A stretch of DNA of 61,511 nt, filler included, from 15 parts of 15 records of this genome joined end to end with filler, not necessarily neighbours in it; one strand, 5' to 3'. Positions 3,415 through 59,608 are shown, counted from the first letter of the whole stretch. Notes: generated by a model from the letters alone, not told the origin. A program made the numbers and translations.

Positions 3415-5651
3415 TGTGCCCGCCGGCCGGCAGCCCGCGACTGAGGCCCGATGCAGCGCCGGGAGCTGCGGCAGCTCATCAGGGATGCACAGCCCGCGGA
3501 CACGGCCGGGTTCGACCGGCTGGGGTTCCCCAGCTTCGCGCCGGCGAGGTGCCCGCCCGCCGATGTTACCCGCGAGCCGCTGTCAGCGGGGCCGAGCCGC
3601 TGTGGCCGCCGGGGACCGCTGGGAGTGCCGAAATCGGGGTGCTGTCCCAACTGATCCTAGCTGGCGTGCCGCACGCCGACCGGCCGGTGGCCTGGCTCCG
3701 GGCGGCGCGCGAGCCGTCGGGCGCGCCCGGGCTGGCCTCTGTGGAGCTGCCGGGACTGGGCCAGTGCCGGAAGCTGCTGGCGAGCGGTGCGGGCCGGCTG
3801 GGCTGCGGGGGACCTGGGGACAGCCGGACGAGCGACGGGGGCGGGGCTGCGGCGGGAGGTTTCCAAGGACGTGCACAGGACCTTCCCGACAAACCCTAGA
3901 TTCGTGAGGGGTGACGGTGAGTCGGGGTGTGGGCGGTGGCGCGAGTCGGGGCCGCAGGGCCGGCCAAACTAGAGAAAGTACTAGTGGGGTACGCGGCCTG
4001 GAACCCGAGAGTGGGCTACTGCCAGGCTATGAATAAGTTTACCGTTGAAGGCTGAGCTGGCGGGCAGGGGATGAATTATGTGGCTGCCACACTGCTGCTG
4101 GTAATGCAGGAGCTTCCACACGCACTGCTGCTGCTCTGCCATTTGTGTGAGGCTGTGGCCCCGAAATACTTCAGTGGCAACATGATCGGAGTCCTCACCG
4201 ACGTGGCGCTGGTCAAGCGACTGGTGCTCTCCCGCCGGGTCTGGCGGCAGCTGTGGGGTAGCTCGTTTCTCGGCTGCCTCGCCTGCACACCGCACTCGCG
4301 GTGTGCGGTTACGACATGATGCTTCTCCTCCCACGATGGCTGCCCACGCTCATGGTCAACGTGGTGCCGCGCTAGCTGGGACTGGGCTGACTGTATGCCA
4401 GCTGCCCTCGGATTCGCTCCTCCGGCTGTGGGATGCAATGCTGATTAGAGGCCGGGTGGCGCTGATAAGTATCTGGCACCACTACGGACCTGCTGAGCCT
4501 CCGACAGGCGTTGTGTTGGCGTTGCTCCAGCGGGCGGCTCCAGAGATCGTCCAGCTGGTCAGTGCCAGGACCGGGCCTGAGCATGACCCTGAGGCACCCC
4601 TGAGATGCGTGAAAGTGTGAGCGGGCTGGCAGCTGCTGATGAGTATCGACGCTGTTCTCAAGCAGACCACGGCGGCGGCAGCCGATGGCGAGTCACTGAT
4701 GGCAGAGGGAGCGTTGTTTGGACTTCAGCCCGTGGAGCTGGCGGCGCTGAGTGCAGAGGCGGCTGCGAGTGTGCAGCGCGAGCAGGCATTGGGCGGAGGG
4801 TGAGTGGCAGCTAGAGCTGAGGGCAGGAGGACAACGACCGGAGGAGGCTGGACCAGAGCCTTGCCGGAATGAGTAAGTTTAGTGTGGCGGAAGTGGAGCA
4901 GCTCCGGGAGATGTGCCAGAGCATGGGCAGCCAGCCTGTCATGCTCGACGCGGCTGCAGTGGCCAAAGTGCTCAAATCGTCGTCGCCTCGAGTGAGTGTG
5001 CCCGCTGGCTAATTGAGCAGCTGTTGGGCAGCACGAGCCACTTGCGGCCGAGATTCACAGGGCATTCGACCTCAACCACGACGGTGTAGTGGATATGAAG
5101 GTGCCCGGCGGGACAGGCTCTGTGAGCGGGGAGCAGGAGCTTGTGCTGGGCCTATCGACTCTCTGCAGAGGCACCGTGAGGGAAAGGCTAGAGCTGGCCT
5201 ACCGCTGCTGGGACTCGGACCACGACGGGCTGCTCGACTTGCCAGAGGCAAATCCGGATCAGTCAGTGCGTGACTGGCGCGGCAGATAGAGGGGATGGTC
5301 TGGTCGTTGCTGAGGGTTCACTACAAGCAGCCACCGGCCAGGGAGACTGTTAAATACATGGCCCAGAGCGTGAGTGCTGCTCAACTGGTGGGGGAGATGC
5401 TCGGGATGCAGGTGTTGGATCAACTCGATCTTGACCAGAACCAGAAGGTGGACATAGACGAGTTTGTGGCGGGAGTGGTGACCATGCCGATTGTGATGGA
5501 CTGCTTCTGCCTGGACGCTCTGTCGGCCGCAGATAGCCAGGGCGGGCTGGCATTGGCCTTGCCGTTGAGCGAAGCGATGGAAAACATCACGCAAGGTGTG
5601 ATGAAAAACATCACGCAAGGGTTGAGTGGGTTGAAGTCCTTATGGTCGTAA
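3415..5651 (+). CDS. TBC (Rab-GAP) domain protein with C-terminal EF-hands; about 12 tiny introns; probably 5' partial
   Basis: After splicing: Arg-finger KDVHRTFP, Gln-finger GYCQ|GMNYV, LPSDSLLRLWDAML, EF loops DLNHDGVVDMKE, DSDHDGLLDLPE, DLDQNQKVDIDE. Introns 3549-3586, 3787-3823, 3917-3957, 4026-4067(GC), 4224-4261, 4364-4401, 4469-4507, 4594-4632(GC), 4786-4826(GC), 4992-5031, 5101-5136, 5248-5285(GC). 3416-3456 also looks like an intron. Confidence 0.88.
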
Positions 5652-5924
5652 AAAAATAGGTATTGACTTTGGTCGATGATGTCACTACTTGATTGCCATA
5701 GATATCTCTAGAGGACGTTTAAACCTACACGATTAATTACTATAGTAAATGATTTTACAGCAATTGACTTAATAGTTCGAGGTAGTATAGAGGCAGTAGT
5801 TTTTGTAGATTTCTACTAGCTGAGCAAGTACATAATATTACGCAGTCGCTACTACTAGTCTGATTGCTGGTGCAACGAAAAATAGAATGGCAATAATTGT
5901 TTGATTTGTGAAACGCTTCCAAGG

Positions 5925-7634
5925 TCATGCGGCTAGTCGGCGCACAGTGAAGACACCTCCAGTTCCGCGGAAAGTTGCTGTAATGGTGTTGTTATCGAGC
6001 GCCAAGCGCCCCGTCCCGTCGTTGCCGGTGATTCCTGCTTGGTTATGGAACGACACCATGCTAGTGGCCTGTTGACCGCCTGCGCCACTAGTGTGCAGCA
6101 AGATTCGATCCCCCCCGAACTGAGCCTCAAACAGCCCGTCGCCAACACACTCCCACATAGCAGCGCCAGGCCCGAACAACGAGCTTTGATGGACCAACAC
6201 ACCACCGTGTCCATCGTCCACGTCGATCTGCTGCGCAACTACAGTGAGTCCGCCAGCTGCGCGCACAGAGCATTGCTGAACTGTGGCTGCAACCAGGAGC
6301 GCCTTATCCATAGTCCTTAGACTTACGGTGTTGATATCTCCGGTCACATTGATGACCCCGTGGCCCACGACCTCACCCGCAGCGAGGGAACCGTTACCGC
6401 CAATCACAGGGAATCCACTGTCGCCATCACCTGCCGTTCAGTCATGACTGCATTTCAAATCACGAAGTATCTTAGCAGCCATGATCACCGTAAGCGTTGA
6501 TCCTGAAGTGTGAAAGACTCGCCCCGTCCACCAAGTTGATAAAATGGCCGTTCTGTTGTGACGCAGGCGCCGAACTGTCGTCCTCGAGCCTGATTCCGCT
6601 CATTTCGACCGTCCGCCAAGCCCCTCGCACTTCAACTGCAGACATGTAGCCGCCTGCCCACCATCCGGCTCCAACCATCCGGCTCTCAAGCCTTACCAGA
6701 TGTTGCGAAATACGTCCCACTCACGGAGAGGTCACACCCTGCCTGCCCGGTTGCGAGGCCTCCCATGTCTAACGACAAAAGCCCGCTGTTGTCTCCAGTA
6801 AACTCCCCGCCGTACAGCCGAAACACCGTGACAGACACTCCTGCGACCAGCCTGCTCACCAGCCCGCATTACGCGGTAGCACCCGTGGCGAGCTTGCGAC
6901 CACTAGGTGCAGTGATGCCCCAGTAAGCGGCTCGCCAGGTAATCAGCAGCCCCGGGTGACCCCCGCCTGAGGCAATCACACTCAGTCCGCGATACCAGCA
7001 AGACTCAAATGACCGGTGTTGGTGTGCAGGGGGTATACCTGAATGGAACCGGCAGTCGCGCCAGGTTTGGACTTCCCCCATGTGGTTGGTGAACGTCGCT
7101 TTGCCTCCCGTGGTCCCGAAATTGCACCGCTCGAACACGACGTCGCTGCCGTAACCGCCACCCGCGGAGCCCTCGGTACGGCCGGCAAGGACTTGGGTGG
7201 CGGCCGAGCCCCCCATGAATGCCAGGCCATGCACGCTGCCGAACGCCGAGCCTGTGAAGTCGTGCACAGCCCCGCCACTGACGGAGGCGTCGGCTTGGAT
7301 GGTGACTGTGGCGCTCGCCCCAGCAATGCCACTGTCGCCCGGCTCGCCGCCTCGTACCGCCATGCCGTCCCACCCACCCCAGTCCACAAACGCTGCAATT
7401 CCCGCCTCAGCTCGGCCTTACCAACGCAGAGCGGCTGCCTGTGATGCGGTAGATGCCACTGGGGAACGCCAGCTCCGTTCGATTCAGCTTGGCAGCGTTG
7501 ATGGCGCTCTGAATGGCCGCAGTGTCGTCCCGCCTGCCGTCCCCGACCGCACCAAAGTCCCGCACGCTCAGCCGAGCATCGGCAGCCCAAAACAGTAACA
7601 GCACCAGCGCAAACACCCGCATCAGCCGCATCAT
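5925..7634 (-). CDS. Secreted pectate-lyase-3-type (right-handed beta-helix) protein, multi-exon
   Basis: Signal peptide [20 protein letters not shown] followed by [43 protein letters not shown] intron (7393-7438) and further GT-AG introns join ORF pieces 6869-7387, 6472-6720 and 5925-6407 in frame. Confidence 0.75.
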
Positions 7635-9450: not shown

Positions 9451-12003
9451 ATGACCCCGTCGGAGGGCGCGGCGGCCCGTGCGGCGCTCAAGCGCAAGCA
9501 CTCGGAGCTCAACAAGCTCAAGGATGCCTTACACCCGGCCTGGTCCCCCCGGCCGCTCGGGACCAGGAACAAGAATGCTCCCCGCCCCGACAGCCACAAC
9601 CCCAAGCGGTCGCGCCGGGCCTCGTCGGCTAACACCAGCCAGGCGGATCCCGGAGAGAACTGGTACGAGAAGGTGCTCGGCCGGGACCCGCGCGGCGAGC
9701 TCATCCCGGCCAAGGAGGCCGAACTACTTCTCGGATTGCCAGTGCCGCCCAGCTGCACCCAGGTCGAGTTCGTTGACGTGGCCGGTCGGCCGGTGCCGCT
9801 GTTCCAGAGCCAGAGCAAGTCGGGCTACTGCTCGGTCCGGAAGGACGTACGGGACCGACAGGTCCAATGGAGCGTCAACAGCAAAGGGATCCCCCCGGGT
9901 AGCTACACAGATAAGAAAGCCGCCGCGGTCGCCTTCTCGCAGGCCTTGACCAGCACGCTCTACCCGCGTTGCTGCGAACCGGAGAACAACACGCCTCGAC
10001 ACGGGTGCCAGCCCACGAGCTCACCAGGTTGCAGCCTGACGGCGCCCACTCAGCTCCCGAGTGGCGCTCTAAGCGACCAGCCAGACGACAAATCTGGGTG
10101 GGCAAGCCAACTGTACGACACTGAGAGCTCCGGTCGGTCCAGTCGCAACCTGGCCAGGAGCATCTCGGAGGACTCCATGTCAGAGCCCAAGCGAGGCGGA
10201 CTTGCCGACAAGTTCATTGAGATTTGGCGGGGCGACACCGAATTTGTCGGCTGGTACCGTGGCAAAGTGTGTGACTACGACTGTACCACCATGCAGTACA
10301 CGGTGCTTCTCGACAAGGGCGGTACGATCGACGTCGACCTAAAAGAGGAGCGCTGGGCCGAGTCGCATGAGCATCGGCTGCGCAAGGAAGCCCTTACCCA
10401 GCAGGAGGCTCTCTCCAAGTACGGCCTCTGCCCGGATGGCTCGCATCAGCCGCCCCAGCTGCCCGCCCCGAGCAGTTCACAGGAGGAGAAGCTACCCGCT
10501 GCAGGGTGTCCAATCGAGGTCTGGTTTGGTCCGCCGTACAAGGGCTGGTTCCGTGGGACTGTGCTCGAGATGGATGCGCAGACAAAGCGGCACCAAGTCC
10601 AGTTTGACGATGGCGAGATCAAGTCTCTCGAGCTAATCTACGAGAACTGGGCACTTTCACAAGAGAACCAGCTGCGGCTCAAGGGGCTGACTGAGAAGGA
10701 GGCTGAGCGCAAGTACGGACTGGTGCGAAAGCCAGTGCATCGAGAAGTCAAGCCGTCGATGAGCCTGGCTGAGATTTGCGAGAGCACTGCCAAGACTGGC
10801 TCGGTGGAGATGGCAGCCGAGATGCCTGCCTCACTTGGAGCTGCGGCACACCTGTTGGGGCCAACAGTGGGCGACCAGGTGCAGCTGATTGGCCGCCGGT
10901 CAGAGATGCGGGCGGTAGTGAGTTTTGTGGAGCGTGTAATGGGTGCGTCGGAAGGTCATGACCAGAGCAAGGCGCTGTTCGTGTGCGGAATGCCGGGGTC
11001 TGGCAAGACAGCACTTGTTAACCACGTGTGCCGGGGCGCTGCCCAGTGGTGCAAGGCGCGGCAAGGGCTCCATTTGCTCCAGCTGAACGCCATGCACATC
11101 CTGGAGCCGCGCACATTGTACACCGAGGTGCTGCGAGGGTTGCAGAACGTGCGTGCCGAGAGTGGGTCGGATGCGTCAGACGACCTGCGGGCGCTGCAGG
11201 CGCAGGTCTGTGCACCTGGGCGGGCTAAGCTCCTGCTAGTAATTGACGAAGTGGACCAGCTGCATACTCGCGAGGAGGAGGTGCTCAACACCCTGTTTGA
11301 GATGGCCGCCCTGCCCGGCTCGAGGCTTGCCCTGATTGGGATTGCCAACAGCCTCAACATGGACCAGCAAGCGCTCAGCTCCGGGCTACCGCCTGAGCAG
11401 CTCACCTTTGAGCCTTACACCACCAAGTCAATCGCTGAAATCATCCGGTCCCGGCTACCTATGCCACACCGGGACTCGTTCGTGCCAGCTGCAATTGACA
11501 TGTGTGCGTCTAAAGTGGCAATCAGCGGGCACGGCGACATTCGGCGGGCGTTTGACATCTGCAGGGCAGCTATCAAGCAAGCCGAGGACCAGGCCGACTG
11601 CCGCGTGGGGGTGCCGCACCTGGCGGTCACCATCCGGCGGCTGCTTGGAGGCAAGCAAGTGGCTGCGTGTGCATCACTGCCACAGGCACACCAGGTTGTG
11701 TGCTGTGGGCTTGTCAAGGCGTTTGGCGCGGTGCCAGACGGCTCGGATATGGGGCTAGAACAGTTGCATCGGGCTTACAAAGCCTTCTGCAAGCTGCATG
11801 CAGTGCCGCTGTATTCGCTTGGCGAGTTCCTGGACGTGCTGCAAATGCTCGACTCTCACGGACTGCTCCGAGTGGCCGACAGCAAGCAGCTGGCTCAGGT
11901 GCGAGTCCGACCGGTGATCTCCGAGGCCGAGGTTCGGCAAGCGCTCGAGACTGGCGAGGGCAATTTTCATAAATATCTGCTTAATGCGCCAGTGCGCACG
12001 TGA
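9451..12003 (+). CDS. CDC6: Cdc6-family replication-initiation AAA+ ATPase with long N-terminal extension (AP2-like + two Tudor-like modules)
   Basis: Walker A GMPGSGKT, Walker B LVIDEVDQL, TLFE..LIGIANSL (sensor 1), FEPYT..IIRSRL, CASKVA..GDIRRAFDICR (sensor 2), winged-helix SLPQAHQVV. DQL/TLFE/LIGIAN fit Cdc6 better than Orc1. No introns. First ATG 9451 (ORF open from 9385). Confidence 0.85.
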   Translation: MTPSEGAAARAALKRKHSELNKLKDALHPAWSPRPLGTRNKNAPRPDSHNPKRSRRASSANTSQADPGENWYEKVLGRDPRGELIPAKEAELLLGLPVPPSCTQVEFVDVAGRPVPLFQSQSKSGYCSVRKDVRDRQVQWSVNSKGIPPGSYTDKKAAAVAFSQALTSTLYPRCCEPENNTPRHGCQPTSSPGCSLTAPTQLPSGALSDQPDDKSGWASQLYDTESSGRSSRNLARSISEDSMSEPKRGGLADKFIEIWRGDTEFVGWYRGKVCDYDCTTMQYTVLLDKGGTIDVDLKEERWAESHEHRLRKEALTQQEALSKYGLCPDGSHQPPQLPAPSSSQEEKLPAAGCPIEVWFGPPYKGWFRGTVLEMDAQTKRHQVQFDDGEIKSLELIYENWALSQENQLRLKGLTEKEAERKYGLVRKPVHREVKPSMSLAEICESTAKTGSVEMAAEMPASLGAAAHLLGPTVGDQVQLIGRRSEMRAVVSFVERVMGASEGHDQSKALFVCGMPGSGKTALVNHVCRGAAQWCKARQGLHLLQLNAMHILEPRTLYTEVLRGLQNVRAESGSDASDDLRALQAQVCAPGRAKLLLVIDEVDQLHTREEEVLNTLFEMAALPGSRLALIGIANSLNMDQQALSSGLPPEQLTFEPYTTKSIAEIIRSRLPMPHRDSFVPAAIDMCASKVAISGHGDIRRAFDICRAAIKQAEDQADCRVGVPHLAVTIRRLLGGKQVAACASLPQAHQVVCCGLVKAFGAVPDGSDMGLEQLHRAYKAFCKLHAVPLYSLGEFLDVLQMLDSHGLLRVADSKQLAQVRVRPVISEAEVRQALETGEGNFHKYLLNAPVRT

Positions 12004-13565: not shown

Positions 13566-16500
13566 TTAAAGCTGGCTTCCAGGATCGGTTGCAATGGGAT
13601 TTGCCTCGGTGGCAGGGGCCACTGGCTGCACTCCTGGCAAGTTATCCCGTCCAGTAGTCAGGTCTTGGAGATTGACTGATGGTTCCTGTGCCATGGATTC
13701 TTCAGCGTGGTCATCATCAAGGTTTGCATTGCGAGTCATTCTGCGAACACCGCCAATGGCCATCCTAGCAGCAGCTTGGAGGGTAGCGCGAGCCTTCCTC
13801 CAGTGCGCCTTGGGACCGAGCTCAATTTTGCCGAGCACGAGATCCTGGTTGTTGACCATGTCTCGCGGGGATACGATATCACTCATTTCGTTTGCACGAG
13901 TGGTGACCACACTCATTCTCATCATGCGGCCATGGTTCTCTTTGAAGTCATCGATCCTTGATTCAGTCAGCTGAAGCCTCTCTTCGAGGTCCTCAGCGTC
14001 CAATCGTTCTTGACGGATCCTGTCAAGGAGAGTTGGATGGAAGATAATCAAGTAAGACTTATGGGCCCACTTGGGCAGCAATACCGTGATGATCGTCACT
14101 GCAGCGTTCAGCCAGAAGGAGGACATGGTGGAATCGCGAACGTAGCTGTAGTAGTACTCGTTGTTTGTAAACTCCATTGGTCTGGGAGCAACCGATGCGT
14201 ATATGTAGCTGAAGAGGAACCAAATGACAATAACCCCCGCAGTAGAGGCCCAGTGATAGATTGTGAAATGGAGCAGATCCATCATCAACCGGATATTCGC
14301 AGCAATGACAATGCTAGTCATAGCACAATTGCCAGCATCAATCATACTAATGTTGCGGCCATCCATGCTGACGACTTGAGATTGGTAGTAGTATCCATAC
14401 ACGAAACAGATCATAGAACCGTAAAAGCCCTCGGCCTGCCAGATCAAATTGACTGTCCAGTTGAGCTCCTGGTACTTGGTACCCTTTTCGTAAAGGTGGC
14501 AGCCCGGGACCTTGAGGGAGTCTTCTTGCGAAATGTCTTGTTCGAAAAACCCGACAGCAAGGACACCCAGTGAAGTAAAGATAATATTGTAGACTGTGAG
14601 GTACATGTCGTCATAGATGGGGGTAGCAGAGAATCCAGTCACAAAAGCTGCGTAGGCGATGGTGTAAGAGAAGATGATATTCTTGTAGAAAAAGTAATTG
14701 ATGCAAAGAGCCAGTCGGTAGTACAGCCAGCGGCCATGGACCAAGAGCAGATTGAGCAGGTACTGGAACTGGTTGATAGCAAAGTCGGCGTTGTTCACGG
14801 CCTGTGTGCCCTCAACACCGGCAATGCCAACACCAACATGAGCCTCTTTGATCATCGAAACATCGTTTGCACCGTCCCCAATTGCCAGGGTGATCTGGCC
14901 AAGCTCCACCTTGAGGAGGTGAGTTAGCTCCTTCTTCTGGACTGGCTGCAGCCGGCACGCCACGACGGCCTTGAAATGCTTGGCCATGTGGATGAACTGG
15001 AGCTGCCAACCACGCATGGTGGCTGCAGTGACTTGGCCGTTCTCGTCCAAAGTCACCTCAGTCTCTTGATCTTCATCTTCGGTGCCGGAGGAGCAGATGC
15101 CTCCCTCTCCTTCCGCCTTCTCGAGTGTGGTCATCTCTTCTTGAGTAAGCTTGCCAAATCCCATCTGCTTGAGAGCAGCTGCAGGGATTGCGAGTGCCAT
15201 CCTCTGCTCTTGCATCATTTCTATGGGCTCGTATTCCAGATAAGTCTCCTGTGTTGCATGATCCATTACCATCCAGGCTTCACGGGAGACGTCTGTCTCC
15301 CAGGAGTACTGGGTGTCCTCGTCATTGTCGGCGCTCTCCGCCTTACGGTACCAGACCTTGCCCTTGACTTTCTTGAGCAGCTCCGGGCAGATCTTTTCGC
15401 CTTTGAAGTAATAATCCATGATGGCTCTGATCCGAGCCATTTGCCGCATGCCGACAATCGTGGCCTCATTGATTTGTTCCTTCTCGTCTTGGCCCGCCAT
15501 AGTCCTTCTGCGGATCTCATCCCTCGCCCACGACGGCTCCAGCTCCTCTCGGAAAGGCCAGTTGGGACTCGGCCATACGCCCTCGTCTGGAACGTACGCT
15601 CCGATCATCACCAAGTCCATCTCTGGGGGCGGCTTGAGCAGCCGGCAGGCGTATGCAATCATCACAGCGGTCTCGACCTTGTCACCAGTGCACACCCAGG
15701 TTTGTACCCCAGACTCAGCCAGTGTTGAGAGCGTGGCGCCAACGTTCTCTTGCAGACGGTCCTCGATGCCACAGGCGCCCAGCACACGCATGCCGAGCTC
15801 GCCCTGCTCCATCTTGACCCGATGCTCGAGGATCTGATCCTTGATCTCGGTTAGGTCCTCATCCATGGCAGCATTCTTCACCTTCTCGTTCATCTCGTCC
15901 CACTTTGGCTTCCAGTTCTTGTATTCGTCTTCCGACACATCGCGGTACGCATACATCATGGTCCGGAGCCCTGATTCGGCCATCGAGTGCACGTGCCCAT
16001 TGACAGTCTTAAGGAACTGCATGTCCACAGACTTGTTGATCATCTCCATGATGATCGCGTCTGCGCCCTTCAGATACACTCGGATCTTGCCGTTGGGCAT
16101 TCTTGTGACAATACCTGCCCTCTTGAGCGACGAGCTGAACTTCAAGCTGTCAAGCACTTCGTATTTCACCTCCTCAAACACCCCGGGCGCGGTTGCACGG
16201 TTCACAGTGAAAACCTTGCCAGTTTGGGTGCTCTCGAGCAGTGTGAACTTCATCCCGAGTTCGCGGGCGGCGTATACCAGCGCGCCGTCGTCGGGGCTCT
16301 GGGCGTTGTATGTCACACCGTCCTTTGCCGAGCTGTCAGCAAGAGGGACGACCTCGTGAGTGATTGCCATCGACATGAGCATGTGTTCCAGATGCACGCG
16401 ATCAGCCTCGGGCAGAGGGTCGGCCCGCTTGGAGTTCTCGCTCGCCAGCCACGCAAAGTCGCTCACGCGGTCATCAACGAACAGGAAGTCCTCGCTTGGA

Positions 16501-45379: not shown

Positions 45380-46859
45380 TTACCACATATCTATTAGCTT
45401 GGGCAGCTTGCCAGTTTCCACCGGTTTGGCAGTTAACGCGAGACCTTTCCACCGCTCGTCGCTCCATCCATACCTAGCGCACCACCGGCTTACTAAACAG
45501 TTCAAGCGCCACTGGTCACGCACCTGCCAGAGCCCGGCCGCGGTTCTGGGTGCACCTCCCGGTTCACGGCCTCCTCCAGCAGCTGCCCAGCCGTCTTCCT
45601 CCGAGCCACGACAGGCGGCTCGGCGCACTCCTTCTCGAGCGCTTGGACCCACCCGGCCGACTGCCTTGCACACCACTCCATCAGGCATGCCACCGCTCCC
45701 TGCCGCCAGCTCTACCCCGCCCAGCAGCCGAGGTTGCCTGCTCAAATTGTTGCTGAGAAACCCAGTCTAGCACAGCGGTCTGGCTCGGGTATTGGACTCC
45801 GCGCTCCAGAGGCACCGGCACCACCTGCAGCCAATCACTGTGCACCCGCCGGCCTCCTACCCCGGCCGGAGCGGTCACTTCTAGCGAGTCGCCCTCCTTC
45901 CATGGGGCGTTTTTGTTGCCTGAGCCCTTGGCCGGCTTCGCTCTTGCCATCAATATCTGCCCACGATCGGCCGCACGCTCGAACACGCGCACACCGGTTG
46001 ATCCGAGTGCGATCCGCACCGGCAGGCTACCCCCCTGCCGCACCGAATGCAGTCCAGTCGCGGCGGCTCCGGCTCTTTCGCGGGCATTGCCTACCTTCCC
46101 GTCTGCAGGGCCTTGGCTGGGTCTCACCGCCCTGAGCTCAGCCAGTTTGCCGCTCGCTGTCTCCTTCTCTGAATCGTGCATCGCCTGCTCCGCCACGCTC
46201 CGCTCGTGGGCGGGCATGGCCAGCAGAGTCTCAGCTCGGTCCTCTGCTGTCATCTCGAGCAGTGCGGTGCCTTGCTCGCCAGCATCCATTGCCGCCAGCG
46301 CCCCCGCCCGCCCCTCGCCCGTCAGCCCCGCCAGGCTCTCCGTGCGCCGCTCGTCCGAGGCCCGGCGGGGCGCCGCTATCGCCTCGATCAGCAGGCTGAG
46401 CTCGCCTCCCGAAAGGTGCCCGTCCCGGTCCTCGTCCCAGGACTGCCATGCCGCCCGCAGCCGCTCCGCCGGCACCCCACCGCCGCCGGCCAGCATCACC
46501 ACCGCCACCCGCGCCGCTCGGGCGTGCACCTCGCCCCGCACCGGCCGCAGCAGCCGCCAGAGCCCCTCGAGCGCCGCTGGCTCCGGCGCCACCCGGCTGC
46601 CCACCCGCCCCAGCGCCTTGCCCAGCTGCTCATGGGTGAGCCGGCCGTCTCTGCCAGTGATCGAGCGGCCTGGCATGGCCCGCAGCCCAGCCTCCGACGG
46701 CCATCGCCGGTGGGCCTGGGCGGCGGGCACATCGTGCAACCCGAGCGCCAGCAGACCGGCCGAGTTGGAGCGGATGGCCGGCGGCGGACGGGCGGTGGAT
46801 GGACGGGGCGGGGGCTGCAGCTTGGCCGGGCCGGACATGGCGCTAGAGGTGGCGCCCAT
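45380..46859 (-). CDS. NCS/calcineurin-B-like EF-hand protein with probable N-myristoylation site, multi-exon
   Basis: MGATSS at 46859 fits MGxxxS (alternative ATG at 46919). ERLRAAWQSWDEDRDGHLSGGEL EF-hand, short L..M..E.R helical repeats. GC-AG intron 45700-45737 and a 32-nt GT-AG intron extend it to ..KLIDMW*. Confidence 0.6.
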
Positions 46860-46958: not shown

Positions 46959-47890
46959 ATGTCCGATGGACCGCCTCCGCTGGAGGATATGTCCGAGAGC
47001 CTGTCGGCGGCGCGGCGGCAGCGGGAGCAGACAGAGCTGGAGCACGACCGCCACCTGGCCTACGTCAAGATGATGAAAGAGGCCCACGCCGAGCCCCCAA
47101 AGGGTGCCCCGCCCACCCGCGACCGTCAAGCCGCCGGGTGCAGGCACCGCCGAGGGGGCGCAGCTGCTGAGCTGCGCCAACAACGCCAAGACCCGGGCGG
47201 CGGAGGGCGCGGAGATCCGGGCCAACGGCACGTGCGGGATGAAGAAAGGTGGACCGGCCGGCGGCGGCGAGCTGAGACCCCGGGGGCAGGTTTCCTGGAT
47301 GCACCCAAGAAGCGCACGAACAAAAGCCGGGCCAAGGACGAGATGGAGGCGGGCTGTGGGCCGGGCCGGCCTGAGCTGGAGGCAGGTGATCCGGCCCAAG
47401 GAGAAGCCCAAGCCCAAGGGAAAGCTTGATGACCTGCAGATGCCCTCGATCGGTTGGCGGCCTGCAGCGCCCGCCCGGCCAGCCGCGGGCAGATGTGTCG
47501 CAGAACCAGGTGGGGGACGTGCTCCGGATGGGCCAGTGCTCGCCGGACGGTGCGGCCCACCGGCTGGGCGGCCTGAGCGACGGACAGAATGGATGACTCC
47601 CGACTTGCTGCAAGCGATCATGAGGGAACCAGACTTGCTCGTGGCGATGCAGGCAGCCGGCACCAACAGTTTGGGCGGGAACAGGGTGGGCAGGACCCGA
47701 GGATGCAGGCTATGATCGAGGAGGTGGGCAAGGACCCGACTGCGATCGAGAAGTATAAGGATAATAAGAAGCTGATGAAGTTTTACGAGACTTGTGAGCC
47801 GCCGCTTCGAGCCCGGCGGCGAGCGGCTGGGGGTGTGCAGATATCCGGCTGGCCTCTAGCTTTGTGCAGAAGAAGAGCGGGAATAGATGA
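46959..47890 (+). CDS. STI1 (DP-repeat) domain protein, 7 introns
   Basis: MSDGPPPLEDM.. N-terminus, GMKKG|FL, EWMTPDLLQAIMREPDLLVAMQ|DPRMQAMIEEVGKDPTAIEKYKDNKKLMKF. GC-AG introns at 47349-47385 and 47653-47693. Confidence 0.78.
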
Positions 47891-50413: not shown

Positions 50414-52749
50414 CTAGACGAATCTTTTGAGGAAGTCAAAAGTCTTGCTTGCAGCTAGCAGCTGGTGCTCAAACAATTGAAACCCGTGCCGCTCGTCCGG
50501 AATTACCACAGTTTCAATGTGGACTTTATCGCCGTGTAGCCGTCGAAGCTGCCGAACCAGTCCAACTGATTCCTGAAAGTCCACATTGGCGTCAGCATCG
50601 CCATGCAGCACCAGCACGGGCGAGGTAAAGTTGGCGAGATGGCCAGCAGGCGAGCTGTCCCAGGCCAGAGCAATGTTCCGTTGCACCTGGTCCAGCCAAG
50701 ATGGCGACAGCAGGTCGGGCGACGGGCCGACTGGCAGGTTGCGGAAGCCCGCGTTGGTGGCCGGCTGGAACTGGAAGGGGGTCGGGCCAAAGTAGCCCTG
50801 TGTGCTCACCCAATTGAACACAGGAGCGTTGCACGCCCCAGCCGAGAAAAGCGGCGAATCGCGGGCCAGGGCCTGAAGGCAGTTGAGGCCACCGTAGCTC
50901 AGTCCGTGAATTCCGACGCGCCGGTTGTCGATTACACTCTGCGACCCAAGCCAGATCCGACCGGCCTTGACGTCGTCGTATTCGGCGGCGCCTCGCCAGC
51001 CACAGCCTTTGGAGCCTCCCTCGCAGTTCTTGAATGCCCTGCCGTACCCGACACCGGAGCGGTAGTTTATGGAGAGGACCGCATAGCCTTCTGAAGCAAG
51101 GTACTGCACACACAGCGAGCTCAGAGCCAGGCTGGCAAAGCAGGCGCCTGGTTGAGGGCATACAGCCCGGCGTAATCGGAGCAATAGTGGAAGGCCGCGT
51201 ACATCTGGCGCTCGGATCCTCCATGAGTGAATATCACAGCTGGAAGGCTGCTTGCTGTGCGATTGAGCCCAACTCGCTTGGGCATGAAGAGCTGCGCGTG
51301 TATGCTGAACAAGCCATCGGTCGAGGGGAATTCGACCAGCTCCGGGACAACGAAGTCGGAGGGATCGAACGGGCTGTTGGGCCCGATCTGGTCCGACGCT
51401 AGACTGACCTGCTGCTTGGCACCTGTGCTTGAGGAGAAGATCACAGAGGCAGGCATATCATATGACGTCTGGAGGTAGAGCAAGCCATCCGGAGTCGCGG
51501 CCATCCCAGCACCGTCCTCGGCCAAGCCTGCTACGTGATGCGCGTCTGCAGTCATCACCGAGCTGCGCTTTCGTGGATCTGACACCGAAATTGAAGCGAT
51601 CCCGTTCGAGTCTACCAGATCACAGTTGTGACTCACGAAGAGCGAATCTCCGTGCAGGGCCCAGTCCTGATTCACACACGGTTGCGGCGTCAGGTCTCTG
51701 AACGAGTCCGTCTTATTGCTCACGTCGCCTTGCACCGAAGCGGCGATCACGTGCACCCAGCCGGAAGCTTCGCTTGCGAACAGCAGCTCCTTGCCGTCCT
51801 GTGTAAACGACATCGGTTTGAGCCCAAAGCCTGCCAACGGATAGCCGAACTTCCAGTCTCGGTACACTTCCCTCGCCTGCCCGGCTAGGTCGCTCACCAT
51901 CACGCTGTAAGCAGGGCCGTTGTTCCCGCCTCTGTCGCTTGCAAACCCCTGGCCGCCGTGCGTGCCCCTTGCATCCGTCGTGTCGTGAATCCGCACAAAG
52001 CCGATCTTGGACGAGCCCCACCACACCGGGGCCGTGTCCATGCTCATCGAGGGCGCAATCCACTCGAGCTTGTGGCTGCCTCGCGTGTAAAGTCCCACGA
52101 ACCCGTGGTCTCCTCGGTTGTTGCTGAACACGAGCCGCTGCCCGTCTCTGCTCCAGCTGAGTCCGTCCAACGCGCCGTGCTTCACGCTGAACAGCTGCAA
52201 GCTACTCCCGAGCCGAGGGTCCCACTCCACCACCCCGGCCCCTCCTGGCCCGGCCGCCAGGTTCTCCACCGCAGGGGCGCCCGCGACGTACAGCCGGTCA
52301 CGCCCGTCCTGCGGGTGCGCCGCAACGGCCCGCAGGCTGCCGGGGCAGATCAGCCGGGCGGCGGCCGGGCCTGAGGCCAGTTCGACGGCATAGACCGAAG
52401 CGGTGGCCGGGTGAGTGCTGTGGGTCGGATTGGCCAGGTTGGAGGGCAGCCGGGTGAAGTAGGCGGTGGAGCAGTCGGCCGAGAGCGCCAGATCCTCGAT
52501 CACCATCCCGTCGTCCCCGGCGAACTCAGTGGCCTGGAAGCTGGGGCCGAACCGCTGGCTGGGCCGGGGCTGGACCGCCAGGTGGAGGTTGGTGGCACCG
52601 CGGGTGGTCTGGATCCAGCCGGCGAGCGTGCCGGACTGGTTGGTGCAGGAGAGCAGCTGGGCCCGGTTGGGGAAGCTCAGGAACCGCTCCAGGTCCGCCC
52701 GGGCGCCCACACAGCACAGCAACACCGCCGCAGCGATCCGGCCGAGCAT
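50414..52749 (-). CDS. Secreted S9-family serine peptidase (beta-propeller + alpha/beta hydrolase)
   Basis: Signal peptide, propeller repeats (LSWSRDG, SFTQDG), HGGSERQM..YALNQ|YLASEGYAVLSINYRSGVGYG, GLSYGG, HGDADANV, DERHGF. One GC-AG intron at 51104-51147. Confidence 0.93.
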
Positions 52750-52834: not shown

Positions 52835-53498
52835 ATGGCTTCTAGCAAGGTGGCCTGCCGCCAAAGCCCCAGGGCGGCTGACAGCCGCTCGTTTGGGGCA
52901 GGTTGTCTTCGTCGGCGAGGATGCGTGCCAGGGTGCGCTGCCCGCGGCGGTGGGCTGGGCTTGACGGTTGCGGGCCAGAACTTTTGATGCAGGCTGTATG
53001 CGGTGGCGATTATTGCGGCGATAATTTCTTCGCGGAGTGGGATGTCGATGATTGCGACCTACAGGTAGAGATCTGGAAATGCCCCTCCCCGGACTTCACC
53101 ACTGGCACTCCCGGGATGCGGAGCATGTGTTACCCGGGCACCGACATCTTCGTCATTTGCTTCGATATGACAAAGAAGGAATCGCTCGAACACGTGATCG
53201 GAGCAAGCCTGGCGGACGCGGGCGGCCTCACCTTCACGGACTTCAGATCTGACGACGAATTCGACCCTAAGGATGATCCGCTCTGCTGGATAAAGGAGCT
53301 TTGCCGGGGATGCGAGAGCGATTTTCATGTGATTCTGGCCGGAACCAAGTACGATCTTTGGGAGGAGGGCTCGGGAGACTGTGTCGCCTGGGAAGATGTA
53401 TGCAAGGCACGCTCGGCTGGTAGAGGCTGCACTGATGGTCGGCCAGGTGGCCAAGGCTATCGGGGCGTGTGTTCCCATCTGCACCTCCACAGAGACAG
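52835..53498 (+). CDS. Divergent Rho-family GTPase-like protein, 3' truncated
   Basis: Spliced: MASSK|VVFVGEDACQ|ELLMQ..DNF..VEIW..MRSMCYPGTDIFVICFD..SLEHV..WIKEL..ILAGTKYDL..K|VAKAIGA. Introns at 52850-52901, 52933-52978, 53407-53446(GC). Confidence 0.75.
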
Positions 53499-53850
53499 NN
53501 NNNNNNNNNNNNNNNNNNNNNNNNNNNNNNNNNNNNNNNNNNTTAATTAATTAANNNNNNNNNNNNNNNNNNNNNNNNNNNNNNNNNNNNNNNNNNNNTG
53601 GTTGGTGTACCTCATTACCGTATTTGATTCGTATTTTGCAGCGTTTGCAACCCTAGCCGGCTGCAGCGAGCTAAAAACTAGCCACAACAATTTTAGCTCA
53701 AGTTGAATAACACTGATTCAATGGAGCATGCCTTGTCAGTACCCGTGTACTCGTCCGGTGGTCTAAACTCGTTCGCGGTATCAATGCGGCCGATCATGAT
53801 CCATAAACACAGCACACGAGACAAATATATGAGTCGTTAAATCGTTCTAT

Positions 53851-54568
53851 TCACCAACCACCCCAGCCTCTGTAACCATTTTGTGGCCCATTCCAGCCAC
53901 CACCCCGTGAATCCCCCCTACACACATGGGACCTCTAAGCCACTCAAGCTAAGTTTGCAACGCACCAGTTGCCAGGGCCACCCCAGCTGCCCCCTCCTCT
54001 ACCCCAATCGCCACCGCCTTTTCCTGCTGCCACATCAGCCCGGCTCCGGATCCCACGGCCACCTTTCCAGCCACCGCCGTATGGGTGAGCTGCTTGGGAA
54101 ACGTTGGCCCGGCGCTGCTGCTGCGCTGGTTGGCGCATTGGACCCCCAGAGACGGTGGCTGGCTGGTTTGCGGCCCGGCCTGGCTTGGTGAAGCTGGTCT
54201 CTAAACTCTTGCCGTCGAGGTCTCTGCCGTCCAGCAGCGTGCGAGCCTTTGCGGCAGCTGCTCCCGATTCGAACTCGACCGAACAGACGCTGCGTCCTGG
54301 CATCAGCCGCAAGCGGGCCGGAGAGCAGTACCCGGTCGACTTGCCGTTGCGCGGGGTCGAGAACACCTCCAGCTCCTTCACCTTGCCGCTCTCGGCGCAC
54401 AGCTTTTCAATATCAGCATCGGTCGTCCACTGCAGCCGCACAGGATCAATCAGCACTGCTGCCGGCGCCGCTGCGCACCCATTGGAGGTTGGTGATGTAG
54501 ATCACTGAACTGAGCACGCCGCCTTCACCGGCGACCTCACCCAGCGTGGCAAACTTGCCAGCGGCCAT
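53851..54568 (-). CDS. CFIm68/CPSF6-like RRM protein with Gly/Trp-rich tail
   Basis: IYITNLQW|WTTDADIE..LEVFSTPRNGKSTG|VCSVEF matches the CPSF6/7 RRM signature (NLxWWTTD..NGxSKG). Ends ..GYRGWGGW* after splicing. Confidence 0.75.
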
Positions 54569-54648
54569 CGACCGGGTACGCTCACGAGCTCGCCCGCAAC
54601 GGACTTCGCGATTCGGCACGAGCGCGTCGACAAGAACCGAGAACATAC

Positions 54649-57584
54649 ATGCCGCCACACTGGTGGATGCCCAGCACCGCGCCCGATGGGTCGGCTGCGC
54701 CAGCAAGTCACTACCCCTATCTCTCTGTGGCCGACCAGGGGCTGCGCACCAGCCCTCCCAGCGCCCAGAGCCCGAGCACGACGGGCGTGGTCCAGCCCGT
54801 CGGGTTCGACACCTGGCAATTCACCAAACCTGAGCCATCCAGCGCGGGCAACGAGGCGCACTACGAGTGAGCACCGCTGCGCCTGTCGCCGCCAGCCGAC
54901 CGGCGCCTGGCAGGTACCTGATCGCCGCCCCAGCCGCCAGAGGCACGCCCGGCGCTGCTTCGGGCTCCACCGGGGTCGCCAAACAGTCCGGGTAAGCGCC
55001 CTCCCCAGTTGCCGCTGTAGGCTGAGCCCTGGACTGGCAGTTCGGCAGCACTGCCAGCGAAGAGCGCCTCGAAGGGCCAACCGGGCGCCAAGGGCAAGGG
55101 GAAAGCTCCGGGCGGGAACCCGCTGGCGCTGCTCAGCGCGCTGCGGTCCAAGGGAGAGGCGCTGCTCTGCCAGAAGCAAGGCGAGTTCAAACAGGCTGTG
55201 CAAATAGCTCGCACCAGCTCACCGGTGGTGTCGATCGGCGAACCACAAAACTTTGAGCCATCGAGTCTCGATTTCCAGGAGGCCCAGCAAGCCGCAGCTT
55301 ACCTCAACAGCCTGAGTGATCTCTCCGATCCCGAAGTCGCGCATAATGCGATGGTCCTGAAGCAAACTCTGGACAGGTTTGCCAATGCGATTGGAAAGCT
55401 CGACGTGCAGATTGCGACAGCACGAAGCGCGTGCCCAGGAAGTGCACAGCCAGCCAAGTCAGCCAAAGCACAGCCCGCAGCTAAAAAGGCCGGTCAGACG
55501 GGACAGGGAAGCTCAGCAGATGCGGCGTGGAAGGCGTTCTGTTCGGGGCTTGCGGCTCAGCCTTGGGCCGAGGCTTGTGCAGTGCTCAACCAGCACCTGC
55601 AGTGCCGTACCTACCTAGCATCTCGTGAGCGATCGGACGTGGATCAGCTCGCATTTGCCGCAGTCAAAGGACTCAACGGATTTGACTACAAGCCGCAGCT
55701 TGAGCTGGAATACCCTCACTTTTGCCGCTGGTTCCTGCACTGTAGTGCGTTCTTTGGAAACGCTGCTCCGGCTGCATCTGCCGGAGCATCCAACGCAGGC
55801 AAGTCTGCACAGCAGCCAGAGGCAAAGAGCAACCCACTGGATAAGCTCAAACCCCTGGAGAACGCTGTTGATGGACAGGTTGTCACACGGTTCCCACCTG
55901 AGCCAAGCGGTTACCTGCATCTTGGGCATGTGAAGGCCTGCCTGCTTAATGAAGGTTTTGCCCGCAAGTACAATGGCAAGCTCATATTTCGGCTGGACGA
56001 CACTAACCCAGATAAGGTGTTGCTTCATATATAAGAGCACTGCCCTCTCTGACACAATTGCCTGCAGGAAGAGCAGGAGTTTGCAGACTCGATGGTCACA
56101 GACCTGAACTCACTTGGGATCGTGCCAGACATGCATTCCGCCACCTCAGATTGGTTCGATCAGCTCCTTGAGGCTGGGTATCAAGTTGTTCGAGATGGCA
56201 AGGCTTATTGTGACAAGACTCCGCAGCTAAAGATGCAGGAGGAGAGGGCTGAAGGAATTGATTCCGAGTTCCGTAACAACAGCATAGAGGAGAACATCCG
56301 GTTGATGGACGAAATGTGTAAAGGTACTCCTGAAGGACTGCTATGCTGTGTGCGTGGTAAGATGGGCATGCATCACAAGAACAAGGCTCTCCGGGACCCT
56401 GTGTTCTTCAGATGCAAAGCGGCTAAGCACCACAGGCTAGGATCACGCTGGAACCATAAAATCTTCCCGTGCTATGACTTTGCTTGCCCGTTGGTAGACT
56501 CATGGGAAGGTGTGACACACGCATTGAGGGATTCCAATTATACTGATCGAGACCTTCTTTACACATGGGTGTGTGAAGCCTGTAAAATCCGCTGCCCAGA
56601 TCGTGCTTTCTTTTCCAGGCTGAATTTTGTTTACTGCGAACTATCAAAGCGTAAGCTTGGCAAACTCGTAAAGCTTGGCAAAGTCAACGGGTGGGATGAT
56701 CCTCGAATGCCAACAGTGCAAGGTGTCCTGAACCGAGGCATGTCAGTGGAAGGCCTCAAGGATTTCATTTTCGAGCAGGCATCATCACTGAATATCACTC
56801 TTCAGGAGTGGGATAAGATTTGGGCCTGTAACAAGGCTGCAATTGATATGATCGTTCCACGGTACACTGTTGTCGAGAAGCCTGTCAAAGTCCTTCTATC
56901 TGGAGACGGCTGTCCTACAGGAGTTGAGCTGAAGGGGATGCCAAAGCATCCCAAAAATCCTGACGTTGGAGAGAAAATCCGTAGGTGCGACATTTTTATT
57001 CACCCTAACGCTAACCTGATCCTGATTTCTTCACTGCAGGTACACAGCAACGGTGTGGATTGATCAGGCAGATGCAATGAGCATAAAGCAGGACCAAGAA
57101 GTCACTTTGGTGGACTGGGGGAATTGCATAATTGAAAGCATTACAGGGACAAATGACGATATGGTAGTTAAGGCAAAATTGAACCCCACCGGAAATGTGA
57201 AGAAGACAGTTAAGATCACATGGGTTGCAGCAATGACAGATACTGTGCCCTGCACGTTAATCGAATTGGACCACCTTCTTGCGAAAAAGGAACTGGAAGA
57301 TGGTGATGAGATCGAGAATTGTATTCGTGAAGTGACGTGGACTGAAGTCCCAGCTGTTGGAGAACATTCAATGCGCATGCTGAAGAAAGGAGACAAGATG
57401 CAAATAATGAGAAAGGGGTAAGTGCTCCTCATGCTCTCTCAATGTGCTTGATGTGGTTGCTTGCAGGTATTACACCTGCTATCAACCATTCATTTCAGAT
57501 GCTCAACCAATGCGGCTCATCCAAATTCCAGATGGCAAGCAGAAGCCAATGGCGAAGGGTGCTAAAGAGGCCAAAAAAGGGTGA
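54649..57584 (+). CDS. Cytosolic-type glutamyl-tRNA synthetase with GST-C-like domain and N-terminal extension
   Basis: [90 protein letters not shown]. No ProRS fusion visible. 5' exons and start are less certain. Confidence 0.92.
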
Positions 57585-58063
57585 GCATACACTATGGTTG
57601 GCCCCATCTGCTTGGAGTGTATTAAACAAGCACTTACAATTACTAGAGAATCGGACAGAGAGTCGGGGAAGAGTTGGAGACATTGGAGAGTTCAAAATCC
57701 GAAAATTCATCTTTAAATAAAAGCCATTANNNNNNNNNNNNNNNNNNNNNNNNNNNNNNNNNNNNNNNNNNNNTTAATTAATTAANNNNNNNNNNNNNNN
57801 NNNNNNNNNNNNNNNNNNNNNNNNNNNNNCCATCGAGCCTCGAGGAGCAGATCAAGCGCTGCATGCTGCATCAGATATTGAGGTAATGACTCCAGAAGAA
57901 CAAGTGCCGAACTGGACAGAAAACAGTGGCGGAAACATACACCGGGTTGATATTAATATAAGTAATAGTTTTCGTGGTCGTTGCTCACGTTTAATTTCTC
58001 ACGTGTGCCTAATAAGCATATCCTAAGCCGCTAATCAGCTAAGCACAGCTGTAAGTGGGCCCC

Positions 58064-58187: not shown

Positions 58188-58190
58188 AAT

Positions 58191-59608
58191 ATGCGATGGG
58201 ACGACCGGTGCCCGGGCCGGCGGGCGGCCGGCGAGGGCTGGACAGGCACGGCTCACCCGTGCACGTCTCCACCCAGGCCAAGCTCGGTCTGTTCGCGGCC
58301 AACGTCTTCTGCCAGATCGCGAGCGGGCTGCTCTATGCCGCGAGCAAGGCGCCGGCCCGCGGCCGGGCTCCCGTGACCACAGCCGGGCAGGAGGACAACG
58401 GCGGGGGCGAGCTCCCGTTCAATACGGTGTTCATGGTTTTTCTGCTTGAGCTGCTCAAGCTGGTGGTGTCGGTGGCGCAGCTGCTGGCCTCGGACGGGCT
58501 GGCGGGCTTCAAGGTGATGCTCCCTGATGTGGGCTGGCGGGCCACAGCGGTGCGTGCAGCGGTTCGATGTGTGCTACATGGTGCCCGGTGGGCTGTACAT
58601 GGTCGGAGATAACGTCTACCTGGTCGTGCTGACCTTTGTGACGCCGGCCACCCTGTGAGCAGCCGTCCTGGCCTCGTTGAGCGGCCGGCCAGCGGACTGA
58701 TCTGGAATATAAAGATAGTGTGGACTGCGCTCATGGTGCACTTCGTGCTCCGTGCCAGCGTGGTCCGCGAGCAGTGGGCGGTGCCATGCCACCGCTGCAC
58801 GGCCGCAGCAGGGACACAGGCGATTGGGGCGCTGTTGGTTGCGATAGTGGTTGCAAAGTACGATCGTGCATCTGAGCCGAGCACTGGGTCTGAATCCAAT
58901 CAGAATTCAGCGGTCGGGTTGCTAATCGGGCTGGGCCTCACAGCGTTAGGCACGCTGATACAATCTTCCGGTGCTCGGCTGGCCAGACGGTGGGTTGACA
59001 GGCTGGTAGGTAATATCAGCACCGAATGGTTGCTCAAGCGCTCACCGGGACTTAGCCTTTACTGGCAGAACATTCAGCTATGTGAGTACGCTGTAAAGGC
59101 TTTTTCGGCGAGTCGGGCGGGGCAGACTCATGTGGACTGGTGTTCAGCAGCCTCGCGCTGATTGTCCAGATGCACAGAGACAACTGGCAGCTTAGTGGGC
59201 TGTCTGCTGGGTTTGATTGGCGAGCGTGGCTGATCCTGCTATTGGGTGCGGCCGGAGGGATCCTCACAGGAGCCATACTTAAGCACTTGGATAACTTGGT
59301 GCTTGTGTATGCGCACGTGACGGCCATGTTTGGGACGAGTATAGGCTCGTGGATCTGGTTTAGCTTTCGGATGCGGTAAGTCGGCGCAAGCCAACAGCCT
59401 GAGGCCTGCCAGGTGGAACTTTGTAATTGGACTGGTGATAGCCTCTGTATCACTGTGGGTCTATTTTAAATACCGCTCGGACAGTGCGGTGGCCCCAGAG
59501 GGCAAGGACGTTGCCTATTTTACGGTAGCTGACGAGCTAGACGATGCTTTTGGCGAGAGTGGGCCCGGCGGGATGGATGACATGGGGGAGAATGTGCCCT
59601 TTCTATGA
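58191..59608 (+). CDS. SLC35A-type nucleotide-sugar transporter, 8 introns
   Basis: VFLLELLKLVVS, YMVPGGLYMVGDN, WNIKIVWTAL, EWLLK..YWQNIQL|Y, GGILTGAILKHLDN after removing 37-46-nt introns. Confidence 0.88.

Follow-up and report, generated by a model that had tools for sequence, protein, structure and literature searches.

The window analysed here is a stretch of 61,511 bases, whose genes are interrupted by very short introns, some of which begin with GC rather than with GT. These GC-AG introns are real and are far above 1% of the introns in the window, the curated tally being 15 GC against 67 GT introns, or about 18%, a share that describes the DNA of one 61-kb window and not a whole genome. 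Counting only the GC junctions that are backed by homology gives a floor of 5 of 82, about 6%. Several of the junctions are exact, GC forms a second class of donor beside GT, and the two classes differ in the bases that surround them. Taken as a whole, the explanation that we favour, and consider likely, is that these are U2-type introns of a telonemid in which GC donors are tolerated within a context that pairs with U1.

According to this explanation the segments would be ordinary U2-type spliceosomal introns of a G+C-rich marine protist of the Telonemia, in which about one sixth of the donors carry C instead of T at position +2, this being confined to donors whose other positions remain well paired to a canonical U1 5' end. 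The context of these donors is exonic AG at -2 and -1, usually with C at -3 and mostly with A at +3 (AG/GCA, the slash marking the exon-intron boundary), whereas GT donors are mostly of the form xG/GTG. The likeliest origin is a GC-biased change of T to C at +2, tolerated in this permissive context. Nearly all of the introns are 37-41 nucleotides (nt) long, which makes intron definition, recognition across the intron, the probable mode.

Candidate introns and their support

An earlier note on this DNA had claimed frequent tiny GC-AG introns and listed 18 of them. On the strand given below each of the 18 segments has GC at its start and AG at its end, is 35-46 nt in length and is preceded by exonic AG; shifted placements that yield the same messenger RNA would have the ends GG-CA, AG-GC or CA-TG, as read from the sequence. 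Three have an exact junction, two lie at a profile boundary, nine are probable, one ties with a GT model and three are candidates only. Homology support covers 5 of the 18 junctions, the remaining 13 being outside the homology test. The segments are as follows, with exonic bases in lower case; the parser is described further below.

4026-4067, plus strand: GC-AG intron, 42 nt, cag/GCTATG...GGGCAG, TBC/EF-hand gene; confirmed
4594-4632, plus strand: probable GC-AG intron, 39 nt, gag/GCACCC...TGGCAG; chosen by the parser
4786-4826, plus strand: GC-AG intron, 41 nt, acceptor GGGCAG; ambiguous against GT 4800-4843
5248-5285, plus strand: GC-AG intron, 38 nt, gag/GCAAAT...CGGCAG, inside the EF-hand; confirmed
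7393-7438, minus strand: probable GC-AG intron; donor uncertain, giving a length of 46 nt (after cag) or 40 nt (after gcc)
28051-28090, minus strand: probable GC-AG intron, 40 nt, tag/GCACGT...CGGCAG, Rh-type ammonium transporter gene; chosen by the parser
29266-29307, plus strand: candidate GC-AG segment, 42 nt; unsupported
29936-29975, minus strand: probable GC-AG intron, 40 nt, cag/GCATCT...GGGTAG; chosen by the parser, no GT option with the same acceptor
30528-30564, minus strand: probable GC-AG intron, 37 nt, cag/GCGGGT...GTGCAG, kinase activation segment; chosen by the parser
31293-31332, minus strand: GC-AG intron, 40 nt, aag/GCTCGC...GGGCAG, just before the kinase glycine loop; well supported
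36000-36034, minus strand: probable GC-AG intron; donor uncertain, giving a length of 35 nt (after cag) or 50 nt (after cgg)
38311-38346, plus strand: candidate GC-AG segment, 36 nt, in frame and stop-free, PH domain of an AGC kinase
45700-45737, minus strand: probable GC-AG intron, 38 nt, cag/GCAACC...CGGCAG; chosen by the parser
47349-47385, plus strand: probable GC-AG intron, 37 nt, gag/GCGGGC...AGGCAG; chosen by the parser, local gain 10.9 bits
47653-47693, plus strand: GC-AG intron, 41 nt, cag/GCAGCC...GGGCAG, inside the STI1/HOP DP domain; well supported as a GC donor
51104-51147, minus strand: GC-AG intron, 44 nt, cag/GCGCCT...GTGCAG, S9 peptidase gene; confirmed
53407-53446, plus strand: probable GC-AG intron, 40 nt, aag/GCACGC...GGCCAG, small-GTPase gene at a contig end; chosen by the parser
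58349-58390, plus strand: candidate GC-AG segment, 42 nt, in frame and stop-free

The exact junctions lie in two genes. In the S9 peptidase gene the removal of 51104-51147 gives DYAGLYALNQ/YLASEGY, which aligns gapless with DYAGLYALNQ/WFASQGY of Telonema subtile (P0001, a EukProt transcript protein; 449 of 779 identities overall), the 38-nt GC intron taken by the parser requires a gap of two residues and the best GT alternative (32 nt) a gap of four, and left unspliced the frame meets a stop after 24 nt. In the TBC/EF-hand gene the comparison is with P0153, a homolog from a whole-library HMMER search whose source is labelled 'merc', and at 5248-5285 its ...DGSLDWDE/IKNMVW... is met by ...DGLLDLPE/IEGMVW..., the junction being free of gaps; with the GC intron removed the alignment to P0153 reaches a score of 518, which falls to 462 or 412 if a GT alternative is taken, and the EF-hand_1 match in Pfam (profile 3-21) stops at the last residue of the exon. 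For 4026-4067 of the same gene, Pfam positions 72-91 of the RabGAP-TBC profile end at the last residue of exon 3960-4025 and positions 92-143 resume at residue 1 of exon 4068-4223, with a stop after 27 nt if the segment is left unspliced. A homolog search with the 52-residue TBC exon listed 15 candidate proteins, none of them with a score.

The two junctions at profile boundaries are those of 31293-31332, where position 7 of Pkinase is residue 1 of the downstream exon and the upstream exon ends with the six residues YALEDK, and of 47653-47693, where position 20 of STI1-HOP_DP is again residue 1 of the downstream exon. The former meets a stop after 6 nt if unspliced and its only GT options are four of 70-106 nt with other acceptors; for the latter a GC donor 3 nt downstream is nearly equal in score, and the GT option is 53 nt in length. 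The conserved motifs that had been put forward in favour of several GC introns have held up, the TBC, EF-hand and S9 junctions being exact and that of STI1 lying at its profile boundary.

Six tiny GT-AG introns validated by transcript-type homologs serve as controls for the method:

40516-40553, plus strand: UBA1, GT-AG intron, 38 nt
40682-40721, plus strand: UBA1, GT-AG intron, 40 nt
40839-40879, plus strand: UBA1, GT-AG intron, 41 nt
4992-5031, plus strand: TBC/EF-hand gene, GT-AG intron, 40 nt
5101-5136, plus strand: TBC/EF-hand gene, GT-AG intron, 36 nt, in frame
5370-5411, plus strand: TBC/EF-hand gene, GT-AG intron, 42 nt, in frame

The spliced UBA1 model has no gaps over its three junctions when aligned with P0005 (81%), P0006 (80%), P0009 (Telonema subtile, 73%) and P0127 (73%), and in tblastn P0153 is contiguous at 4991/5032, with gaps of 12 and 14 residues falling exactly over the in-frame introns 5101-5136 and 5370-5411. 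In total the transcript-type homologs span nine introns, six GT, two GC and one ambiguous, two of the three genes having been picked because they held candidates.

Among the nine probable introns, 47349-47385 is likewise without a GT option to its acceptor, and those that share the acceptor of 45700-45737 are 62 to 116 nt long. The same-acceptor GT options of 4594-4632 are of 75, 84 or 120 nt, with P0153 stopping short of this junction. The sole GT option near 28051-28090 has 55 nt and a GAG acceptor; here the downstream exon aligns to residues 66-112 of RhCG, the spacing to the first transmembrane helix having been judged by eye only, and a PDB search with the upstream exon gave no relevant match. 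At 30528-30564 the GT alternative is 46 nt with a TTGAG acceptor and both flanking exons are without a Pfam hit, and at 53407-53446 the upstream exon matches Pfam Ras, 17 residues follow downstream and the GT options are 43-64 nt. The donor is less certain at 7393-7438, whose upstream exon is matched by PF12708 and for which the parser took the 40-nt GC donor with the same acceptor, the GT options being of 67 nt or with other acceptors, and at 36000-36034, where the parser took the 50-nt GC donor and the same-acceptor GT options are 20, 23, 113 or 119 nt.

The weakest are the three candidates. 29266-29307 is unused by the parser, and its splicing merely swaps a short C-terminal tail for seven codons. 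The parser reads through both 38311-38346 and 58349-58390; for the first, position 18 of the PH profile is residue 2 of the downstream part, which fits removal of the segment without proving it, and for the second both flanking parts lack a Pfam hit. The GC-AG class listed earlier is a real one (15 of 82 curated introns), with 4786 tied, 29266 unsupported and 38311 and 58349 only candidates. Alternatives had been conceded at 4594, 4786, 38311 and 58349, of which 4786 does tie with a GT model, 38311 and 58349 can be read through and 4594 has GT options of 75-120 nt only.

GC as a second class of donor

The parser is a dynamic programming procedure with codon log-odds trained on nine long open reading frames (eight with Pfam hits), in which introns of 25-120 nt are scored by length and by a 3' weight matrix made from GT introns, blind to the context of the donor. 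The length of the introns that it found peaks sharply at 37-41 nt; their donors have the pattern GTG(C/A)G and their acceptors the pattern GGCAG. When GC was allowed beside GT the score rose by 219.9 bits with 26 introns, 12 of them after AG, whereas 14 decoy dinucleotides allowed beside GT gained 11.9 to 114.6 bits with 4-21 introns, 0-4 of them after AG, and a third dinucleotide added once GC was already allowed gained merely 1.9-48.6 bits. As GC stands out among the 15 dinucleotides it is a real second donor class, although the decoy counts show roughly half of the 26 GC introns called by the parser to be noise or else displaced GT introns. Compared with the 18 listed introns the parse with GT and GC returned 12 exactly, three with the same acceptor and another GC donor, and left three unused. 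In Pfam, 11 of the 20 exon fragments submitted had no hit.

In the curated set 12 of the 26 GC calls were kept, all after AG, three were changed to an AG-preceded GC donor with the same acceptor (51104 by homology, 7393 and 36000 after the earlier note), six were moved to a nearby GT donor of the consensus type, at a distance of 3-6 nt, and five were taken as noise. The 67 GT introns consist of 58 parser calls, the six that were moved and three in-frame introns. The parser also called in-frame 42-nt GC...AG segments at 9993-10034 (ORC1/Cdc6) and 13765-13806 (P4-ATPase), which do not follow AG and were treated as noise.

Context of the donors

The 15 curated GC donors were compared with the 67 curated GT donors, with the following result.

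-2 A: GC 15/15, GT 26/67, p = 1.3e-5
-1 G: GC 15/15, GT 43/67, p = 0.004
-3 C: GC 9/15, GT 22/67, p = 0.076
+3 A: GC 9/15, GT 6/67, p = 5e-5

At +4 to +6 the 15 GC and 67 GT donors do not differ. Exonic AG precedes all 15 GC donors and 18 of the 67 GT donors; the context AG/GYA holds nine GC and two GT donors, AG/GYG four and 14, and outside AG there are none and 49. The mean match to CAG/GTAAGT, assuming a canonical U1, is 5.47 for GC donors and 4.88 for GT donors (p = 0.04), and GTG occupies +1 to +3 in 48 of the 67 GT donors. In sequence terms the context of the GC donors is classical compensation for a U1 mismatch at +2, and as -2A, -1G and +3A would supply this compensation divergent small nuclear RNAs (snRNAs) are not needed.

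These counts bear out the observation that GC donors follow exonic AG (18 of 18 listed, 15 of 15 curated and, unguided, 12 of 26) whilst GT donors often do not (49 of 67). It had also been thought that positions +3 to +6 are nearly unconstrained, which stands for +4 to +6 in that the classes are alike there, and fails at +3, where A is found in 9 of 15 GC donors and 6 of 67 GT donors.

Intron length, base composition and internal signals

The narrow length of about 40 nt noted earlier is confirmed in the curated set, with 54 of 67 GT introns and all 15 GC introns at 35-46 nt. Introns are 68-69% G+C and 59 of the 67 GT introns end in CAG. Both donor classes alternate in single genes, as in the TBC/EF-hand gene, where four GC candidates are interspersed with GT introns, and in the STI1 gene, which has two GC and five GT introns. 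GC donors occur only on contigs with a G+C content of at least 0.594, making up 15 of 61 introns there and 0 of 21 elsewhere (p = 0.009), and this confinement to the G+C-richer contigs fits a G+C-biased origin.

The introns do not form a repeat family, their median pairwise similarity being 0.52 against 0.45 for random segments and the highest 0.85 against 0.76. Two introns of different genes, 20553-20597 and 36664-36704, both follow aag and are identical in their first 13 bases (GTGGCCGGCCAGT). The last 25 nt show an enrichment of CTGAG (7.0-fold) and of TGAGC (4.6-fold), the A of which usually lies 12-13 nt before the 3' end, and the motif YTRAB is present in 8 of 15 GC introns, 14 of 60 GT tiny introns and 304 of 2000 random segments. 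No ATCC-type U12 donor is present in the curated donor list, a check that covers donors and not the U12 branch site.

Three tiny GT-AG introns, 5101-5136, 5370-5411 and 4469-4507, are stop-free and have a length that is a multiple of three, and since the parser read through in-frame stop-free introns this type is under-counted. For 75 tiny introns the length is divisible by three in 15, the other two classes having 26 and 34. This deficit may reflect selection or mere detection bias.

The stretch and its source

The window is not a single locus, it is composed of 15 contigs of 3.0-5.8 kb each, with a G+C content of 0.52-0.66, joined by N44-TTAATTAATTAA-N44 spacers at 3315-3414 and at 13 other places. 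As the contigs are chained by spacers, distances and gene neighbourhoods across them are meaningless. Rfam matched zero RNA families over the whole window. The long open frames are all eukaryotic, and include UBA1, a P4-ATPase, ORC1/Cdc6, EF-hand proteins, PPP1R21, JmjC and GT92.

A search of 5.8 billion proteins gave four matches to the S9 peptidase, the sole close one being that of Telonema subtile with 58% over the spliced model. UBA1 has 73% identity to T. subtile and 80-81% to environmental proteins on contigs of roughly 3.4 kb, with Thecamonas the next named taxon at 51%; a search of a protein atlas with UBA1 returned generic UBA1 clusters only. Metagenome scans with the S9 peptidase found nothing in the first instance and in the second, which was alignment-based, six loci of 27-35% identity, too distant for introns to be compared. 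Judged by the best hits of two of the 15 contigs, the source organism is of a lineage of Telonemia, a marine protist related to Telonema, the placement having been made from the best named hits of the S9 and UBA1 contigs only. T. subtile is the best named hit for both proteins. As GC and GT introns are mixed within genes and the same type of intron is present on the UBA1 contig, it can be argued that the intron-bearing contigs share one source.

A number of features of individual contigs are also apparent. The contig with the JmjC and GT92 genes has a 34-nt inverted repeat, 97% complementary, exactly at both of its ends (31587-31620, 35617-35650), which may be an artefact of assembly or amplification, or else mark the termini of an element that is mobile or linear. 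The start of the UBA1 contig (40425-40437) resembles what we take to be a sequencing-adapter tail, so this contig end may not be genomic. On the lower-G+C contigs (21016-24950, 53599-57729) some introns are longer (47-101 nt) and T-richer, unlike the G+C-rich type of 37-41 nt, and these might belong either to one heterogeneous genome or to a second source. None of the sequencing runs listed as containing the stretch is recorded as RNA, and two DNA runs are listed with shares of 0.07 and 0.06; contigs assembled from these DNA reads match only 28684-28974 and 30111-30453 of the contig 28478-31486, with no candidate donor inside.

Alternative explanations

The first alternative to be weighed is that the GC calls are mostly mis-delimited, the real introns having GT donors with an odd length or acceptor, or the segments being coding, such that the true GC share is a few percent. 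A number of points weigh against the existence of the GC introns as we have drawn them. Frame-compatible GT...AG alternatives are present at nearly all loci, and at every locus if 20-120 nt and any acceptor are permitted, and the gains of the parser per locus are small, 2-11 bits. At 4786-4826 the two models align almost equally well with P0153, at 518 and free of gaps for GC and at 516 with a single gap for the GT model 4800-4843, the latter intron (44 nt, GTGAGT...CCGGAG) having a perfect donor and a rare GAG acceptor where the GGGCAG of the GC model is usual. Two segments, 38311 and 58349, are in frame and stop-free and 29266 is unsupported, whilst the decoy dinucleotides also give 3-21 calls, a sign that parser noise is high. 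Homology backs only 5 of the 18 junctions, the genes with exact junctions were picked since they held candidates, and the GC calls draw on genomic sequence, homologs and the parser rather than on spliced transcripts of this organism. Moreover, 14 of the 26 GC calls of the parser do not follow AG, the unguided figure being 12 of 26, and as the reassignment was partly guided by the consensus the 15 of 15 makes the AG rule look more independent than it is; most of the GT introns were taken from the parser without being checked singly. A common origin of the short contigs is likewise assumed, with best hits placing two of them only.

Against mis-delimitation, three GC junctions are exact and two are at profile boundaries, which with 5 of about 82 introns already amounts to roughly 6%. 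The GT alternatives are mostly of 46-120 nt or have a GAG acceptor, and are thus unlike the GT introns of the window (54 of 67 at 35-46 nt, 59 of 67 with CAG), and GC is a clear outlier of the 15 dinucleotides in both score gain and calls after AG. Mis-delimitation on this scale is therefore unlikely.

Equally doubtful is a more far-reaching proposal, in which Telonemia, an orphan lineage, would have a minimal form of splicing where the donor is set by the 37-41 nt length together with 4-6 U1 base pairs and +2 is nearly neutral in AG/G_A, possibly with altered contacts of U1 and U6. If true, telonemids would offer a test, provided by nature, of the least information in the donor with which a spliceosome can work.

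The mechanism suggested in the earlier note, that donors are selected by exon-side AG and a 40-nt ruler through divergent U1, U5 and U6, with what lies beyond +2 hardly mattering, is improbable. The GT donors are indeed weak and unusual, with GTG in 48 of 67 and +4 to +6 only loosely constrained, the intron length is very narrow and all credible GC donors follow AG. However, besides AG at -2 and -1 the GC donors favour A at +3, and their enrichment falls exactly where a canonical U1 5' end would pair, whilst 49 of 67 GT donors do not follow AG, which is therefore no general selector. The U1 5' end is also of the consensus type in two other species rich in GC donors, the putative U1 of Aureococcus and of Micromonas pusilla both having the canonical 5' end AUACUUACCUG according to the text of Iwata and Gotoh (PMC3033335).

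That the window mixes at least two organisms, with the GC introns coming from another genome than the GT introns, is very improbable and largely refuted, for although there are 15 separate contigs of G+C 0.52 to 0.66, with GC donors on the G+C-richer ones only and some longer, T-richer introns on the others, both classes alternate within genes (TBC/EF-hand, STI1) and the lower-G+C UBA1 contig has the same GTG introns of 38-41 nt and, like the G+C-rich S9 contig, Telonema as its best named hit.

Comparison with known systems

The favoured explanation, a telonemid whose U2-type introns tolerate GC donors in a context that pairs with U1, can be set beside what is known from elsewhere. In five model species GC-AG introns are 0.37-0.87% of introns, and the mismatch of +2 to U1 is offset at other positions of the donor, as reported in the sections of PMC1557818 that deal with them. 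The introns of the window are like these U2-type GC-AG introns in that +2 is offset by -2A, -1G and +3A and in that acceptor and length are as in GT introns, and differ in being about 20 times commoner and in a compensation that does not reach +4 to +6.

The raised use of GC-AG introns in certain other lineages, to which the earlier note had pointed, is well documented and lowers the novelty of the present case. In the text of PMC3033335 GC-AG introns are described as 'extraordinarily abundant' in some G+C-rich genomes, with 39.6% in Aureococcus anophagefferens, 22.2% in M. pusilla and 7.7% in Chlorella sp. In the relevant part of PMC4815162, M. pusilla CCMP1545 has 25.6% GC donors by RNA-seq, 79% of them in introner elements, Emiliania huxleyi is cited as having 50%, and average intron lengths are 152-187 nt across two Micromonas genomes. 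As in Aureococcus, M. pusilla and Emiliania, the DNA examined here is G+C-rich, GC donors are, by the curated tally, tens of times commoner than the usual 0.4-0.9% and the two classes share genes, and the link of G+C to donor type that is seen here between contigs recalls these protists rich in GC donors. Unlike those of Micromonas the introns are 35-46 nt, compared with an average of 152-187 nt, and unlike the introner elements of M. pusilla they share no family-level similarity. Since GC shares of 22-50% are already published this is a known kind of oddity and not a new phenomenon; what the window adds is a new lineage for it, set apart by extremely short introns and the lack of introner repeats.

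Very short introns under a tight constraint of length are a feature of ciliates, the nucleomorph of Bigelowiella and Blastocystis, which are mostly A+T-rich and, to our knowledge, not rich in GC donors. The narrow length peak and the weak internal signals seen here are similar, suggesting recognition across the intron, and the difference lies in composition, the introns of the window being 68-69% G+C.

A full-text search of one literature library, together with passages of the telonemid papers PMC12432456 and PMC11512789, found no description of the nuclear introns of telonemids. In the window 10 of 26 gene models have at least one curated GC intron, and a gene finder that accepts only GT-AG would split about half of the genes of this lineage or put them in the wrong frame; the annotation of telonemid genomes and metagenomes therefore needs GC donors and an intron model of 35-46 nt. 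With the telonemids, the G+C-rich protists in which GC donors abound may now comprise four unrelated lineages, and the per-species GC-AG tables that supplement the papers cited may add others. That GC donors are abundant here without introner repeats supports a general account in which a G+C-biased change is tolerated wherever U1 pairing is otherwise sufficient.

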